A stretch of 64,000 bases of DNA from Candidatus Tayloriibacteriota bacterium (GCA_028286725.1 JAQBQZ010000014.1:5051-69050); one strand, 5' to 3'; shown: positions 9,112 through 50,239, counted from the stretch's first letter. Notes: generated by a model not told the origin, from the sequence alone. Numbers and translations are program-made.

Positions 9112-9645
9112 ATGGCAAAAATCACTATATTTGGGCTCGCAGGGACGGGCAAAGGTACTGTTTGTAGGCTTCTCTGTGAGAAGCTTGGCTACCGATCTTT
9201 TTCGGGCGGAGACTTCGCCCGAGAGACTGCTCGCAAAATGGGTCTCACGATAAATGAGATCGATGAGCTTTCTCGATATGACAAAAGTGTTGATATTGAA
9301 AGAGATCGGGTGATCGAAGACTTTGGTAAAACCAATGACAATTTTGTCGTGGAGGCTCGACTTGGGTGGAAGTTTATTCCTGATTCATACAAGGTGAGCT
9401 TTGAGTGCGATTTTGAAGAGCGTACTCGTCGTGTAGCTCAGAGAGAGAAGAAAGATATCGTAACTGTACAAGCTGAAACTGTACAAAGGGAAAACGCGAT
9501 CTATGATAGATTTCTCAAATATTATGGAATCAAAAATGTTAATGATCCAAAACATTTCGATCTCATTATTGATACGACTCATATTACGCCAGAAGAGATT
9601 GCAGAGAAAATTATAAACGGACTCAAAGAGAATAATGTTTTTTAG
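9112..9645 (+). CDS. cmk: Cytidylate kinase, archaeal-type (Cytidylate_kin2 family)
   Basis: P-loop ITIFGLAGTGKGTV and overall similarity to archaeal CMP kinases. 177 aa. Confidence 0.6.
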   Translation: MAKITIFGLAGTGKGTVCRLLCEKLGYRSFSGGDFARETARKMGLTINEIDELSRYDKSVDIERDRVIEDFGKTNDNFVVEARLGWKFIPDSYKVSFECDFEERTRRVAQREKKDIVTVQAETVQRENAIYDRFLKYYGIKNVNDPKHFDLIIDTTHITPEEIAEKIINGLKENNVF

Positions 9646-9836
9646 AATCTAATTCAAAATTAATGAACTATACAAAACCCAAAATTTTGAAGGAAAAAAC
9701 AAAGGATGAGGAAGGAGGCCTAGCGGTGCTAAGCAGACTGACGAAACTTGGTTTTTTACCAAAATTTTGGGTTTTGGATGTTAAAGTTTTATTTTCTTGT
9801 ATTTATTATAAACGGTTAATTTTGAATTAGATTCTG
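9643..9836. mobile_element. MITE-like palindromic element, copy 1, with perfect 20-bp terminal inverted repeats
   Basis: TIR agaatctaattcaaaattaa (9644-9663) pairs with ttaattttgaattagattct (9816-9835). Nested 17-bp IR caaaacccaaaattttg/caaaattttgggttttg. Purine-rich core aaggatgaggaaggaggc. Left TIR overlaps the cmk stop codon. Confidence 0.5.
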
Positions 9837-11576: not shown

Positions 11577-12752
11577 CTACTTTGTATTTTCAATTCTCAT
11601 TGCAGGAAGCATTGCTCCAAGAAGAACTACAGCGAGTATGGGGAAAATATATGCAAACGGTACGTAGAGAAGCATAACGCTTCCTACAAGCGGTCCTGCG
11701 ATATATGCGAGCGGCTGTGTCATACGAAAGACTTCGATGAGCTCGTCTTTACCTTCACTCTTTTTGAAAAAATAACTTTCAACCATTGTCTCCATTATTG
11801 AAGCACCGATTCTTCCCAAAAGTATGACGAGGGTCCAGAGCATAAATGCGCCTTTTGGCAAAGCCGGAAATAGAAGGCTCGCAATGATCATAAATATCAT
11901 TCCACCCAGAAGCATTTCTTTTTCTCCGAGTACATTGTCTGCAAGCTCGCCTGCAGGAATCTCAAGAATGACAAATGGAAGGAGAGTAATACTTATGATA
12001 ATACCGATATCTTCCCAGCTGAATCCCATTTTGGTTGAAAGATAAATCGGAATATAGATAACAAGCCAAGAAAAGAAAAACTGAAGTGCGAAGTTTATGA
12101 TCCCGATCCTTCGAATATTTGGTATCGACAAGAATTCTTTTATTGAATCAAATCCTTTGATGGTTGTGAGTTTTGCTTTGGTGAATTGATCCCGGTTTAT
12201 AATGATAACAAGTAAAAATATACACAAGAAAAACAGTGAGAAGAGATAGACTTGCTTGAATCCGTTTTCTGCAACCATGCCGCCTATAGCAAGAGGAGAG
12301 AGTACTGATGCGGTAGCAAGTACTGTGAGAAATATTCCGCGGGTCTTGCCCATGGTGAAAGCTTCGGCAGTGTCCTCGATTGCAGTATCAAGGCAGACGA
12401 TCATGAGTACTGGTAGTGAAAGGTATACAAGGAACGCGGGGATTATAAAATTAACATTGTCGGTGATTACGATTACACTGAGTGATGCAATATCTACAAG
12501 AGAGAGGGTGATAAAAGTCTTCAAGATTCCGATTCGTTCGATTATTCGAGAGAGTTTGTAAAGTATTAGAATAGTAAGTGCTGATGCGACTGCGTAAAGT
12601 ATTCCGATCATTGAGCGGGGCATGATCATCTCAAGGTATGAAGAGTTGATGTAGAGAATAAAATAATAATGAAAGGCGTAAAATATTGATGCAGAAAATA
12701 TATGAAGACAAGAATGGCTCGCATTCTTTGATTTGGTGAGAAGTTTTAACAT
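11577..12752 (-). CDS. MFS-type transporter
   Basis: 391 aa with about 12 hydrophobic helices and a central loop. Confidence 0.6.
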   Translation of the reverse strand: MLKLLTKSKNASHSCLHIFSASIFYAFHYYFILYINSSYLEMIMPRSMIGILYAVASALTILILYKLSRIIERIGILKTFITLSLVDIASLSVIVITDNVNFIIPAFLVYLSLPVLMIVCLDTAIEDTAEAFTMGKTRGIFLTVLATASVLSPLAIGGMVAENGFKQVYLFSLFFLCIFLLVIIINRDQFTKAKLTTIKGFDSIKEFLSIPNIRRIGIINFALQFFFSWLVIYIPIYLSTKMGFSWEDIGIIISITLLPFVILEIPAGELADNVLGEKEMLLGGMIFMIIASLLFPALPKGAFMLWTLVILLGRIGASIMETMVESYFFKKSEGKDELIEVFRMTQPLAYIAGPLVGSVMLLYVPFAYIFPILAVVLLGAMLPAMRIENTK

Positions 12753-13010
12753 TTATCCTAGAAAATTTTATCTATTAAAAAAGTTGATTGTGCTTACAGT
12801 ATATCCCATAACCTATCTAGTAGAAAGAATAATTTATTGAGTTATTTTACTACCAATCAACTTTTTCTTGTTATGCAATATTGATTGCTTTGGTTTTTTA
12901 TATAAATAGCGTTTAAATATTAATTTGGCACATATTATGTAATATGGGCTTTTTGCATAACGATAGATAAAACTTTAGAGGATGAATTATAATCTATAAA
13001 AACAAAAAAT

Positions 13011-24117: not shown

Positions 24118-24122
24118 GGAAT

Positions 24123-24162
24123 GGATTCATTTCTGACGGCCGTCAGAAATGAATCCATTTAT
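24123..24162. repeat. Perfect 40-bp palindrome (20+20, no loop) between murI and rnpB
   Basis: aatggattcatttctgacgg|ccgtcagaaatgaatccatt. Not followed by a T-tract. Confidence 0.5.
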
Positions 24163-24227
24163 CAGATCGGTAAGAAAACATTGGACCATATTGAATCGTT
24201 GAATTAATCCAATTTTTGTGGTATAAA

Positions 24228-24840
24228 TTGGCAGCGCTGGATAGCTACTGTATATGTAAATATATAGAGGAAAGTCCGAACACGGGCTGAGTATCACACT
24301 CTGTGTGATACGTATTTAAACATTTAAATATTTAAATTCGTATCGCGCGCAGCGTGATACTCGGGCGGGTAGTGGGTAATTCCCATCATTAGGAGGTATC
24401 CTATAGAGGTGCGAGCAGAGACGCTCAAAGCGAAATGCTGAGAGTGCCCTGGAAGAGTTCATTCATAATCTAATGTCGAGATAGAATTCCAAAATTTTGT
24501 GCGAAAACCAGGAATTTAGACGAATCATATCGGTGATATGGTAAGGAGAAATTACTGAGTTTGCAGCCAAAATTTTGGAATTCTATACGGCAAGCATTGT
24601 TTTGAATTTAAGTTTGCGTTTAGATTATGAATGAACTCTTTAGGGTAAGTTTTGTGGCAACACAAAAGTGAAACGGCAAAACCCTTACTTCCGTGCAAGA
24701 CCGTACCCGTGCATCGCACTTCGTGCGATGCACGGGGGTGTCGCTTGATTCGTTTGGTAACAAACAGAACAGATAAATTGCTATCGTTGCCGCAAGGCAG
24801 GCACAGAATTCGGCTTATAGGCGCTATACAAAACACTTCA
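24228..24840 (+). ncRNA. rnpB: RNase P RNA (bacterial type A core) with large insertions
   Basis: P4 strands GAGGAAAGTCCGAAC (about 24266-24280) and ACAGAATTCGGCTTATAG (about 24803-24820). Ends are approximate; about 610 nt versus the usual 350-400. Confidence 0.8.
24482..24585. mobile_element. Short palindromic MITE-like element (copy 3, deletion derivative) apparently inserted inside rnpB
   Basis: 17/18-bp IR tagaattccaaaattttg … caaaattttggaattcta. Shares the tagaat terminus, the ccaaaattttg inner-repeat motif and a purine-rich ggtaaggagaaa core with the 9643 and 39375 elements. Confidence 0.35.
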
Positions 24841-24858
24841 GGCAACTGAGGTGTTTTT

Positions 24859-24905
24859 TTAATCCCGCACTCAATTTTCCAAAGAAAAAATGAGTGCGGG
24901 ATTTG
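24859..24905. terminator. Hairpin plus T-tract downstream of rnpB
   Basis: aatcccgcactca …17-nt loop… tgagtgcgggatt, then ttgtttttg. Confidence 0.5.
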
Positions 24906-24938
24906 TTTTTGTTGTGATATAATTAGTTCAAATTTAAT

Positions 24939-32047: not shown

Positions 32048-32116
32048 GTTTTTTCTTTAAACTGATAGTGAATAGAGTATAACATAGCTTTAGGTTGTGA
32101 TAAAATGAGCTAAATC

Positions 32117-32485
32117 ATGAGAAAATTCGAAGCTCAAAAACAAATCAAAAGCAGGGTGTATTCAAGAGGTGTTCTCATTGCTCTTTTGATTGTTATTATT
32201 TTTACTGCAAAGGGGGTATTTAACATTTATCTTCGTAACAAAGAGAGTGCTACGGCTCGTGATGAGACGGCAATGAAGCTTAAAGATTTGAATGATCGTA
32301 AGGATCTTTTGAATACCGAAATATCCAAGCTCAATCAGGATGATGGTGTTGACCAGGAGATCAGAGAAAAGTTCAATGTGATTAAACCTGGAGAGAACGT
32401 GGTGATCATTGTGCCAGAAGAAGTTGCGACAACAACAGAGGAAAAACCAAGTGCTTTGAGCAAGTTTTGGCACTGGCTTTGGTAG
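32117..32485 (+). CDS. Septum-formation-initiator (FtsL/DivIC-like) protein
   Basis: Short cytoplasmic N-terminus, one TM helix (VLIALLIVIIFTAKGVF), then a coiled-coil (…LKDLNDRKDLLNTEISKLNQDD…). Confidence 0.4.
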   Translation: MRKFEAQKQIKSRVYSRGVLIALLIVIIFTAKGVFNIYLRNKESATARDETAMKLKDLNDRKDLLNTEISKLNQDDGVDQEIREKFNVIKPGENVVIIVPEEVATTTEEKPSALSKFWHWLW

Positions 32486-32527
32486 GTGATATAATAACCA
32501 CCCTTTTACTAATTAATTTAAATACTT

Positions 32528-32764
32528 ATGGCAAATAAAGTAATCATTTACAGTACACCGACTTGTACATACTGCAAGCATGTTAAAGAATTTTTCAAAG
32601 AGCATAATGTAGCTTATGAAGAATTTGATGTTGCGGCAGACAAGGATAAGAGAGCTGAGATGGTAGATAAGAGCGGGCAGCTTGGAGTACCAGTGACAGA
32701 TATTGATGGACAGATTGTTGTTGGATACGATGAGGCGACACTTAAACAGCTTCTCGCAATATAA
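32528..32764 (+). CDS. Glutaredoxin-like protein (NrdH/Grx family)
   Basis: VIIYSTPTCTYCKHVKEFF… CxxC thioredoxin-fold motif. 78 aa. Confidence 0.7.
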   Translation: MANKVIIYSTPTCTYCKHVKEFFKEHNVAYEEFDVAADKDKRAEMVDKSGQLGVPVTDIDGQIVVGYDEATLKQLLAI

Positions 32765-38592: not shown

Positions 38593-39393
38593 ATGGCAAA
38601 CAAAAAAGTTAAAGTATTGGTGTTTTCGGGATATGGGCTCAACTGCGAAGAAGAGACCAAATATGCTTTTGAATTGGCGGGAGGTGATGCCGATATTGTG
38701 CATATCAATGACCTCATCGCAGGTATAAAGAAGATCAAAAATTATGACATCCTTGCTTTCCCCGGAGGGTTTTCTTTTGGTGATGATACAGGAAGTGGGA
38801 AGGCGTACGCAAACAAGGTTCGAAATCACTTATGGAAAGATATCGAAGAATTCATTGCCAAAGACAAGCTTATTATTGGAATTTGTAATGGATTTCAGAT
38901 TCTTACAAATCTAGGTATTCTTCCAGGAGCTTTGATGTGGAATGATAGCGCTCGATATATCGACCGATGGGTTGATATCAAGATAGAAGGCAAGAGTCCG
39001 TGGCTTACAGGTATCGACACGATCTCACTCCCGATCGCACACGGCGAAGGAAAATTCTATACAGATACTGAGACATTGAAGAAAATCAAAAATGAGAATG
39101 CGATTGTTGCTCGATATGTCAAAGGCGAGACTTGTGAAATGACAGGACTATCCTCGAATCCTAATGGAGCTCTTGAAGATATTGCTGGCGTACTAGGCAA
39201 TAATGGAAATATCATCGGTATGATGCCACATCCAGAAAGAGGATTGTTTGTATCTCAATTACCAAACTTTCCATATCTAAAAGAAAAAAGTAGAAGAGAC
39301 GGAAAGAAGCTCCCTAAATATGGTCCTGGTTTTCAGATATTTAAAAACGCAGTGGAATATTGTGCTAGAACCCGTCTCAAAATTAACCGTTAA
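38593..39393 (+). CDS. purQ: Phosphoribosylformylglycinamidine synthase glutaminase subunit
   Basis: KVLVFSGYGLNCEEETKYAFELAG…GICNGFQIL…MMPHPER class-I glutamine amidotransferase triad. Confidence 0.85.
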   Translation: MANKKVKVLVFSGYGLNCEEETKYAFELAGGDADIVHINDLIAGIKKIKNYDILAFPGGFSFGDDTGSGKAYANKVRNHLWKDIEEFIAKDKLIIGICNGFQILTNLGILPGALMWNDSARYIDRWVDIKIEGKSPWLTGIDTISLPIAHGEGKFYTDTETLKKIKNENAIVARYVKGETCEMTGLSSNPNGALEDIAGVLGNNGNIIGMMPHPERGLFVSQLPNFPYLKEKSRRDGKKLPKYGPGFQIFKNAVEYCARTRLKINR

Positions 39394-39552
39394 TTAAATT
39401 CAGATGCAACTTGAATATTCAAAAGCTAAAATTTCGGTAAAAAATAAAGTTTCGTCAGTCAACATAACGCAGTTATGCCTCCTTCCTCATCCTTCATTTT
39501 TTTCTCGAAATTTTAGCTTTTCTATTATTCATTAATTTTGAGATGGATTCTA
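39375..39552. mobile_element. MITE-like palindromic element, copy 2 (inverted relative to copy 1, diverged)
   Basis: Reverse complement aligns to the 9643-9836 element: tagaatc…caaaattaatgaa…aaggatgaggaaggaggc…gactgacgaaact…ttttttacc…aacggttaatttt. Its own inner 16-bp IR aaaagctaaaatttcg/cgaaattttagctttt shows compensatory changes. One end overlaps the purQ stop. Confidence 0.45.
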
Positions 39553-50014: not shown

Positions 50015-50090
50015 TCGGAAAGGTCTAGGCGCCAGCTCGCTTGTTTCTGAAGCTTCAGAAACATAGCGGCGCTGTTCGAATCTGGACGCA
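50015..50090 (+). other. Degenerate inverted tRNA-Phe-like fragment (pseudo-tRNA remnant) containing a perfect 18-bp palindrome
   Basis: Shares ctgaag and the 12-mer gttcgaatctgg with tRNA-Phe in the opposite orientation. Does not fold into a cloverleaf. Palindrome tttctgaagcttcagaaa. Confidence 0.3.
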
Positions 50091-50114
50091 ATCAAAATTA
50101 TTTGATTGCTCTCT

Positions 50115-50169
50115 CGGCACAAAATACAAAAAACCACACAGAATCTGTGTGGTTTTTTGTATTTTGTGC
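50115..50169. terminator. Perfect 26-bp-arm palindrome directly downstream of tRNA-Phe
   Basis: ggcacaaaatacaaaaaaccacacag-aat-ctgtgtggttttttgtattttgtgcc. The inner ccacacag/ctgtgtgg stem plus tttttt acts as a terminator on either strand. The symmetry extends into the tRNA 3' end (gctctctcggca versus tgccgagagcc). Confidence 0.5.
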
Positions 50170-50239
50170 CGAGAGCCAGATTCGAACTGGCGACCCCTTC
50201 CTCTTCAGGGAAATGCTCTACCAACTGAGCTATCTCGGC
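50167..50239 (-). tRNA. tRNA-Phe (anticodon GAA)
   Basis: Minus-strand cloverleaf GCCGAGATAGCTCAGTTGGTAGAGCATTTCCCTGAAGAGGAAGGGGTCGCCAGTTCGAATCTGGCTCTCGGCA. All four stems pair and the T-loop is TTCGAAT. Confidence 0.85.

Follow-up and report, generated by a model that had tools for sequence, protein, structure and literature searches.

In heterocyst-forming cyanobacteria, STRR repeats reportedly lie in helix P12 of the RNase P RNA, an observation said to go back to Vioque in 1997. P12 is dispensable in cyanobacteria according to one report (PMC2858038). Here we describe a comparable case in 64,000 nucleotides (nt) of DNA from a Candidatus Tayloriibacteriota bacterium (GCA_028286725.1, JAQBQZ010000014.1:5051-69050; hereafter the window, with positions counted from its first letter), where the RNase P RNA gene, rnpB, contains a 188-nt palindromic element at helix P13. 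We consider it probable that the P13 apical loop of a functional rnpB has been replaced by a complete, sense-oriented copy of a mobile palindromic repeat of ~190 nt. As with STRR, a genome-wide repeat family would then occupy a peripheral helix of the specificity domain, lengthening the RNA and being tolerated there. STRR, however, form tandem arrays of heptamers in P12, whereas the window has a single imperfect palindrome of 188 nt in P13 and no tandem array.

The gene also resembles RNase P RNAs already described from the Candidate Phyla Radiation (CPR). Class A RNAs of this group were reported to fall below Rfam thresholds and to have "large extensions of helices", such as an extended P15, or to lack helices (Lui et al. 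2021, PMC8172020). The window gene is like them in scoring 72 bits against a cutoff of 100. The accessible passages of that report draw no tie to repeated or mobile elements and describe neither binary inserts at several helix tips nor an insertion in P13. Literature searches on mobile or palindromic elements in CPR RNase P RNA returned only this general report of extended helices. What would be new here is a mobile palindromic repeat in P13 of RNase P RNA; helix extensions in CPR and repeats in rnpB were already known.

In architecture the element is like Rickettsia palindromic elements (RPEs), Correia elements and miniature inverted-repeat transposable elements (MITEs), which measure 100-200 nt, have terminal inverted repeats, form long hairpins and occur in many copies in either orientation. 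These are likewise squeezed between or into genes and co-transcribed, and the two intergenic family members in the window, elements A and B, overlap stop codons; of the 526 RPEs of R. bellii, one is in the gene for transfer-messenger RNA (tmRNA; PMC1458961). The likeness is one of architecture, and similarity of sequence is not expected. One pair of filled and empty sites shows no TA or other target duplication, and the strong conservation of internal single-stranded loops in its intergenic copies is unusual for a MITE. The intervening sequences (IVSs) of 23S and 16S ribosomal RNA (rRNA) offer a further parallel, being hairpins of ~100-200 nt that replace the apical loop of a conserved helix in an essential RNA and are sporadically distributed. 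IVSs are defined by RNase III excision and lie in rRNA, whereas the host here is RNase P RNA.

The P13 insert and its family

The rnpB gene, of bacterial class A, covers 24229-24830 on the + strand (602 nt), as located by a match to RF00010 run in E-value mode (model positions 1-367, 72.2 bits, E 7.7e-22). This score lies below the RF00010 gathering score of 100, the cut-off for class A membership, and a default Rfam scan at gathering thresholds therefore does not report the gene, returning only a LOOT RNA and two tRNAs from the window. The low score is due to two large insertions, of 96 and 185 nt, which Infernal must open to align the gene to the model; L011, an insert-free relative, scores 99.9 bits. 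Extra sequence in the gene had been noted in the initial annotation of the window, and its assignment of the P4 strands stands. The class A helix order (P1-P5, P7-P14, P15, P18) is present together with the conserved P4 strands, marked by the motifs GAGGAAAGUCCG and ACAGAAUUCGGCUUA, and the helices align and covary with those of relatives; P16/P17/P6 is reduced to one simple hairpin. The P4 strands are 536 nt apart, compared with a median of 309 nt among 105 rnpB genes of the clade, where 6 genes reach at least 535 nt and 10 at least 450 nt. The gene is thus over-long, as the annotation had noted with estimates of about 520 against about 290.

Features of rnpB around the insert, all on the + strand:
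24267-24283: 5' strand of P4 and start of P5, GAGGAAAGTCCGAACAC (sequence reading, RF00010 match, relatives' alignment)
24424-24442: short P12 hairpin, CUCAAAGCGAAAUGCUGAG (folding of nine clade rnpB genes)
24445-24450: 5' strand of P13, UGCCCU, pairing with 24642-24647 (covariation in relatives, Infernal label P13)
24453-24640: inserted palindromic element, predicted full-length family member, sense, in place of the P13 apical loop (R1 match)
24453-24473 and 24620-24640: outer stem, perfect over 21 base pairs (bp) (inverted-repeat search and fold)
24481-24586: inner stem-loop, aligning to R1 positions 28 to about 137 (inverted repeats, fold)
24587-24619: 33-nt 3' spacer with a small side hairpin, equal to the family's 33-35-nt 3' spacer
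24642-24647: 3' strand of P13, AGGGUA (relatives' alignment and folding)
24648-24669: P14 with a GCAA (GNRA-type) tetraloop, uninterrupted (RF00010 match, alignment, folding)
24803-24817: 3' strand of P4, ACAGAATTCGGCTTA (sequence reading, RF00010 match)

The host helix was identified by comparison with relatives, whose rnpB loci (numbered with L) were fetched via homologs of the protein encoded just downstream; a single metagenome scan, for which a 20-mer conserved in rnpB was the query, supplied a further 120 clade loci. Aligned with close relatives, the window site reads UGCCCU-GG-[188 nt]-U-AGGGUA. L003 and L009 have a plain loop at this place (CACCC-UUCG-GGGUG), as do L004 (AAUCC-UUCG-GGAUU) and L010 (CACCC-GUUA-GGGUG), while in L186 the helix is capped by a loop of 6 nt (CACCC-CAAGUG-GGUG). 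The insert is therefore absent from these five relatives, all with loops of 4-6 nt, and present at the orthologous position in L188. The strands of the helix covary (CACCC/GGGUG, AAUCC/GGAUU, UAUCCU/GGGAUA), which shows that the helix is real and that its loop is what the element replaces. The earlier suggestion of a palindromic insertion in a tolerant peripheral helix holds. Its placement in P12 or P3 has to be revised: Infernal labels the host helix P13 in both the window and L003, in agreement with the relatives' alignment and with the folding of nine genes. Eight of the nine folded genes have a short hairpin with a (C/U)GAAA-type loop, then a variable hairpin, then a hairpin with a GNRA or similar tetraloop. 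This order corresponds to P12, P13 and P14, and the host of the insert is therefore P13. We also considered P12, since Infernal puts the homologous hairpin of L011 there, and rejected it in view of the separate short P12 in 8 of the 9 folded genes. No aligned relative has an interruption in the tetraloop of P14 or of P18.

The insert folds at -85 kcal/mol (z = -12.2), with the antisense strand reaching -70.7 kcal/mol. Within its outer stem lies a perfect inner stem of 19 bp (24481-24499 / 24568-24586) with an internal loop, AGACGA/AAGGAG, and an apical hairpin at 24524-24542. Within the window, the 18-nt inverted repeat TAGAATTCCAAAATTTTG is confined to 24482-24499 and 24568-24585, where it is exact, and GGTAAGGAGAAA occurs once. 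Tandem Repeats Finder detects no tandem repeat in 24453-24640, its sole find in the gene being three copies of an 8-mer at 24313-24337, in another hairpin. The 104-bp piece at 24482-24585 that had been taken for a short member of the palindrome family is only the inner stem-loop; the unit is the full 188 nt.

This unit is related to palindromes that lie between genes, two of which are in the window, where they are 82% identical over 115 nt:
9643-9836, + strand: intergenic element A (BLAST, alignment, R1)
39366-39552, - strand: intergenic element B, in the opposite orientation (BLAST, alignment, R1)

The first three bases of element A are the TAG stop of the open reading frame (ORF) 9112-9645, and ORF 38593-39393 owes its final 28 nt (39366-39393), stop codon included, to element B. 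Both elements leave almost no spacer to the flanking genes. Further copies were sought by querying a genome collection, to which the window's own genome does not belong, with the shared core AAGGATGAGGAAGGAGGC; 5 of 54 matches were true family members, from related metagenome-assembled genomes (MAGs), and the rest were mostly chance purine-rich sequence. Elements A and B and these five copies were used to build a covariance model, R1, from seven intergenic copies only (84% mean column identity, 18 pairs with compensatory changes). The family architecture consists of a 20-bp outer stem, a 5' spacer, a 17-bp CCAAAAUUUUG stem, an A/U stem, an internal loop, an apical hairpin and a 33-nt 3' spacer.

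Run unfiltered across the whole window, R1 matched the rnpB insert over its full length (24453-24640, + strand, model 1-194) at 91.7 bits, with a rough E-value of 7e-19; the reverse strand scored 17.7 bits. The relation to the intergenic palindromes proposed at the outset is thereby upheld. The fit runs end to end with just four small gaps and includes the unpaired motifs CAAGC and GCGTTTA of the 3' spacer. As controls, long hairpins in 97 kb of relatives' loci, other rnpB inserts among them, scored at most 30 bits, an inverted repeat beside a tRNA gene in the window (50064-50196, a non-family site) 40.5 bits, and the reverse strands of true members 33-46 bits. Over ~800 kb of clade loci, R1 found no matches beyond true members and one truncated copy in L007. 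In a model-fitted alignment of eight copies, standard pairs fill 95.8% of pair cells; the number of pairs with compensatory changes rises from 18 to 31 once the rnpB copy is included. The rnpB copy agrees with 64 of the 108 columns that are invariant among the intergenic copies. Structure-guided identity is 49-56% between the rnpB copy and the intergenic copies and 73-83% among the latter. With at most one mismatch, CCAAAATTTTGG occurs four times in the window, in both arms of the rnpB insert and both arms of element A, against a chance expectation of 0.49. As to the motifs the annotation had listed as shared, the CCAAAATTTTG stems are indeed homologous, whereas the "tagaat terminus" and the "purine core" are out of register: it is AAGAGUUC at 24453 that aligns with the outer terminus of the family, and the family's purine-rich loop corresponds to the other hairpin strand in the insert. 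On the basis of architecture and compensated base pairs, we conclude that the whole 188 nt is likely to be a full-length, divergent member of the intergenic family.

Several observations concern the family as such. First, GAAGGATGAGGAAGGAGGC and GACTGACGAAACTT are single-stranded and invariant across species (window, L041, L043, L059, L061) while the stems covary, which is odd for a plain MITE. Second, there is weak evidence that the purine-rich strand of the intergenic copies is the folding strand, with 16 G-U pairs against 5 A-C mismatches. Third, readings of the intergenic loops as hammerhead, kink-turn or box C/D-like motifs (GAUGA...CUGA) were rejected by eye for unfit spacing, and a third intergenic palindrome of the window, at 12746-12992, an imperfect one with 30-nt arms 187 nt apart, was dismissed as a family member, being unrelated by BLAST and R1. 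Lastly, the family has no significant Rfam match, literature searches turned up no description of a 190-nt palindromic family, a metagenome scan with the insert core GACGAATCATATCGGTGATATGG gave no matches, and neither did scans of viral contigs. Within the region beside the tRNA gene that served as a control, the repeat at 50111-50175 is inverted and perfect over 32 bp, and its right arm extends into the 3' end of that gene (50167-50239, - strand).

Mobility, objections and rival readings

The family is mobile, at least insofar as orthologous sites are polymorphic for its presence. A 191-nt copy in L061 lies between orthologs of the window genes 32114-32482 and 32528-32761, which in the window are separated by an empty site:
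32483-32527, no strand: 45-bp spacer between genes whose L061 orthologs are separated by a 191-nt family member

The filled junctions in L061 read ...TGGTA|AGAATC...GATTCT|GTGATATAAT and the empty site ...TGGTAG|GTGATATAAT. The L061 element sits exactly between a stop codon and a TG-extended -10-like box. P13 of rnpB is polymorphic in the same sense: the window and L188 have the insert, and in L003, L004, L009, L010 and L186 the site is empty. Copies number at least 4 in one related MAG, and 2 are intergenic in the window; they occur in both orientations relative to flanking genes, have terminal inverted repeats and overlap stop codons. Many are flanked by TA..TA, though inconsistently.

The copies inside rnpB form a subtype of their own. 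The orthologous P13 copy of L188, from another sample, scores 92.9 bits on R1 and is 87% identical to the window insert, with an identical outer stem and compensatory changes in the inner stem. In L186 and L187 the hairpin that separates the 3' strands of P2 and P4 contains a full-length copy (88.7 bits), and L007 has a truncated copy (32.5 bits) in the same hairpin. We take this hairpin to be the one called P19 in some RNase P RNAs. The P2/P4 copies are 91.5% identical to each other and 70-74% identical to the P13 copies. So far the subtype is known from rnpB alone, where it occupies the tips of P13 and of the P2/P4 hairpin. It has CAGGAATTTAGACGAATC and GGTAAGGAGAAATTACTG in place of GAAGGATGAGGAAGGAGGC and GACTGACGAAACTT. 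Motifs similar to those of the intergenic copies, AAGGAG and GACGAA, stand on the internal-loop strands opposite to theirs, as if the loop had been flipped.

How an element of this family could have come to rest in rnpB may be pictured as follows. It would have arrived as DNA and may have survived because an apical loop with no tertiary partner tolerates addition. It would be transcribed and kept as a long, solvent-exposed extension stacked on P13, with its perfect outer stem probably continuing the P13 stem. The ribozyme core is untouched, as are the P14 and P18 tetraloops, which presumably make tertiary contacts. On this view the element could count as selfish DNA with the behaviour of an expansion segment. 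In very compact genomes, a small repeat family would be able to colonise an essential ribozyme gene and persist there with compensatory stem evolution.

Several observations weigh against this reading. First, a sequence-only profile of the intergenic copies misses the rnpB copy (nhmmer, 6.5 bits, E 0.21), and when the insert is compared with the window by BLAST, the sole match is the 12-mer CCAAAATTTTGG, which element A also has. Second, the loop motifs GAAGGATGAGGAAGGAGGC and GACTGACGAAACTT, invariant in intergenic copies, are absent from the rnpB copy, which we therefore file as a divergent subtype and not as a typical member. The nhmmer result and the missing motifs together mean that the link to the family lies in architecture, stems and a few motifs, and that R1 E-values are rough. 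Third, the five loci with the rnpB subtype (four distinct copies) all have it in rnpB, which would also fit a dedicated RNase P module. Fourth, the distribution is patchy: L188, with 55% identity in the neighbouring protein, has the P13 copy and L003, with 70%, does not, so that several gains or losses are needed. Lastly, a target-site duplication of at least 2 bp is not seen in the single filled/empty pair, L061 and the window.

One alternative concerns the RNA only and is compatible with a mobile-element origin. A nuclease such as RNase III might excise the insert from the precursor at the long stems, in the manner of an IVS, leaving a two-piece RNase P RNA held together non-covalently. Judged by how rRNA IVSs are processed, perfect duplexes of 21 and 19 bp have the length that RNase III requires of a substrate, and a hairpin at a helix tip with sporadic, binary occupancy among relatives is what rRNA IVSs look like. 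The compensatory changes between the window and L188 keep the internal stems paired well beyond any cleavage site, however, which fits retention without proving it. To our knowledge no bacterial RNase P RNA is fragmented in this way, and excision would be the first known IVS-type fragmentation of one. We regard such a fate as unlikely, though not far-fetched. If the inserts are retained instead, these RNAs would be among the largest bacterial RNase P RNAs, at 602 nt in the window and 855 nt in L186.

A second possibility is that the P13 hairpin grew within rnpB by palindrome extension or slippage, and that its likeness to the intergenic palindromes is convergent. Such growth would account for a sequence-only similarity that is not significant and for a subtype found in rnpB only, and large helix extensions in CPR RNase P RNAs have already been reported (PMC8172020). 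Convergence sits poorly with the end-to-end fit, interrupted by just four small gaps, to a model trained on intergenic copies alone, when generic long hairpins reach no more than 30 bits in relatives' loci and 40.5 in the window. The presence of one subtype at two different helix tips, and sites that are binary, without intermediate lengths among close relatives, also speak against it, and we hold expansion in situ to be distinctly improbable.

The subtype could also have been co-opted and be under selection, perhaps because the specificity domain uses it as an arm that binds a protein or makes a tertiary contact. Its apical core (GACGAA..CATATC..TGATATGG..GAGAAAT) is the part best conserved across the P13 and P2/P4 copies, while the outer stems compensate, and an orthologous copy has been kept in two lineages. 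Most close relatives, on the other hand, do without the insert and have a plain tetraloop instead, and the same subtype sits at two unrelated positions of the RNA; a functional module therefore seems to us very doubtful. A dead gene or an assembly artefact, that is, a disrupted pseudogene or a chimeric join at a repeat, could be suspected from the sub-threshold Rfam score and from relatives' contigs that often break at repeats (that of L007 begins within a repeat, and in L004 a repeat is followed by an N-run), but the chance of this is close to negligible given conserved core strands that are all intact and near-identical to those of relatives, a syntenic locus with no second rnpB in the window, an identical sequence from an independent assembler, and the same insert at the same site in L188 from another sample.

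Expansions at five helix tips

The P13 insert is part of a wider pattern among close relatives, in which each of five helix tips of rnpB either has a baseline length or exceeds it by about 60-190 nt, and lengths in between do not occur. Site lengths, counted as nucleotides between conserved anchors, are as follows for P3, the P5/P7 hairpin, P12-P14, P15-17 and the P2/P4 hairpin:
Baseline (approximate): P3 21, P5/P7 24, P12-P14 56, P15-17 33, P2/P4 17
Window: P3 21, P5/P7 86, P12-P14 245, P15-17 34, P2/P4 17; rnpB 602 nt
L188: P3 23, P5/P7 24, P12-P14 245, P15-17 31, P2/P4 17; rnpB 537 nt
L003: P3 141, P5/P7 124, P12-P14 56, P15-17 34, P2/P4 19; rnpB 573 nt
L010: P3 151, P5/P7 124, P12-P14 55, P15-17 120, P2/P4 18; rnpB 668 nt
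L186: P3 151, P5/P7 123, P12-P14 57, P15-17 121, P2/P4 206; rnpB 855 nt
L011: P5/P7 26, P12-P14 74, P15-17 35, P2/P4 25; rnpB 381 nt

The 245-nt P12-P14 segment of the window exceeds all 115 in the metagenome survey and is matched only by L188. The extreme case is L186 (rnpB at 449-1303; likewise L187), which has inserts at four of the five sites (P3, P5/P7, P15-17 and P2/P4), only P13 being empty; ~500 nt of its 855-nt gene is insert. The remaining inserts of relatives come from different sequence families, members of which likewise turn up at more than one tip. One such family, a hairpin of ~120 nt of the type AATAATCAATAACCAAAC..., occupies P5/P7 and P15-17 with two 100% identical 119-nt copies in the rnpB of L010 (2363-2481 and 2630-2748), and is found at one or both of these sites in L003, L004, L009 and L186. 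Another family is at P3 in L010 and at P15-17 in L008.

From the several families at five tips, the families shared between tips, the 100% identical pair and the subtype found only in rnpB, one might argue that the hairpin inserts of this clade are mobile elements of a class that specialises in apical loops within structured-RNA genes and moves by a hairpin-targeted or RNA-level mechanism. We consider this a rather unlikely extension of the simpler reading, that of a mobile palindrome in the P13 loop. Were it true, bacteria would have in these inserts their counterpart to expansion segments, with an independent means of spread and able to push RNase P RNA to 855 nt. The clade offers a natural experiment on ribozyme tolerance, in which five tips accept large additions while the core and the P14 and P18 tetraloops stay uninterrupted. 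Inserts of 60-190 nt at helix tips take the Rfam score to below threshold, so that many CPR rnpB genes would escape standard annotation.

The P5/P7 hairpin contains the second, separate expansion of the window gene and measures 86 nt from anchor to anchor, the baseline being ~24:
24283-24368, + strand: clade-specific P5/P7 hairpin, expanded; inverted repeat with arms 24289-24325 and 24326-24362, fold -43 kcal/mol

Its AT-rich apex, at 24300-24340, contains the array of three 8-mers. The AT-rich palindrome that the annotation had listed at 24300-24330 is present and forms the apex of this hairpin. The equivalent hairpin in L011, of 17 nt, is treated by Infernal as an insertion after P5. Infernal would make the 86-nt hairpin P8, with GAGUA as P7; we rejected this assignment, as relatives including L011 show a P5/P7 hairpin with GGUAG as P7. 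By eye, the window hairpin shares a framework with the P3 insert of L003 (L003 2309-2448), GAGTATCACA..GTGAT ... ATCGCGC..GCGTGATRCTCGGG, comprising two flanking mini-hairpins around a different centre; the likeness goes unscored by BLAST.

Large rnpB expansions occur elsewhere too. In six Paceibacterota rnpB genes (L074, L103, L117, L120, L135, L172) the P4 strands are 541-671 nt apart, and large expansions are located at P5/P7 (~300 nt; L135, L172), P13 (L105, L117, L185) and P15-17 (~285 nt; L074, L079).

Genomic setting of rnpB

The window rnpB lies between murI and the gene for a 715-aa membrane protein, the same place as in relatives. Named relatives of the protein just downstream come solely from MAGs labelled Patescibacteria or Paceibacterota. 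Judging by its sequence, 24229-24830 is probably a functional RNase P RNA gene of a Paceibacterota (CPR) bacterium. The independent Logan assembly of run SRR13312974 reproduces the whole gene and both inserts base for base, and the Rfam scan found no second rnpB within the 64-kb window. Candidate expression signals flank the gene:
24217-24228, + strand: putative promoter, an extended -10-like box, TGTGGTATAAAT, just upstream of the RNA 5' end (direct reading)
24830-24863, + strand: putative terminator, a hairpin followed by a T-run (inverted repeat, direct reading)

The TGTGGTATAAAT box is identical upstream of rnpB in L003 and L004. Simple scans for sigma-70 promoters and terminators around rnpB made no calls. 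TG-extended -10-like boxes recur at 24217-24228, 24915-24925 and 32487-32496 (TGTGGTATAAAT, TGTGATATAAT, GTGATATAAT), ahead of rnpB and of protein genes.

Two minor features complete the setting. A LOOT RNA (RF03000) at 629-747 scores 81.7 bits, well over its gathering score. Directly after murI, at 24120-24159, lies a perfect 40-bp palindrome (AATGGATTCATTTCTGACGG/CCGTCAGAAATGAATCCATT); both Logan contigs of the rnpB locus terminate in or near it, and similar palindromes (..TTTCTACGGCCGTAGAAA..) stand at the matching position in L004 and L188.

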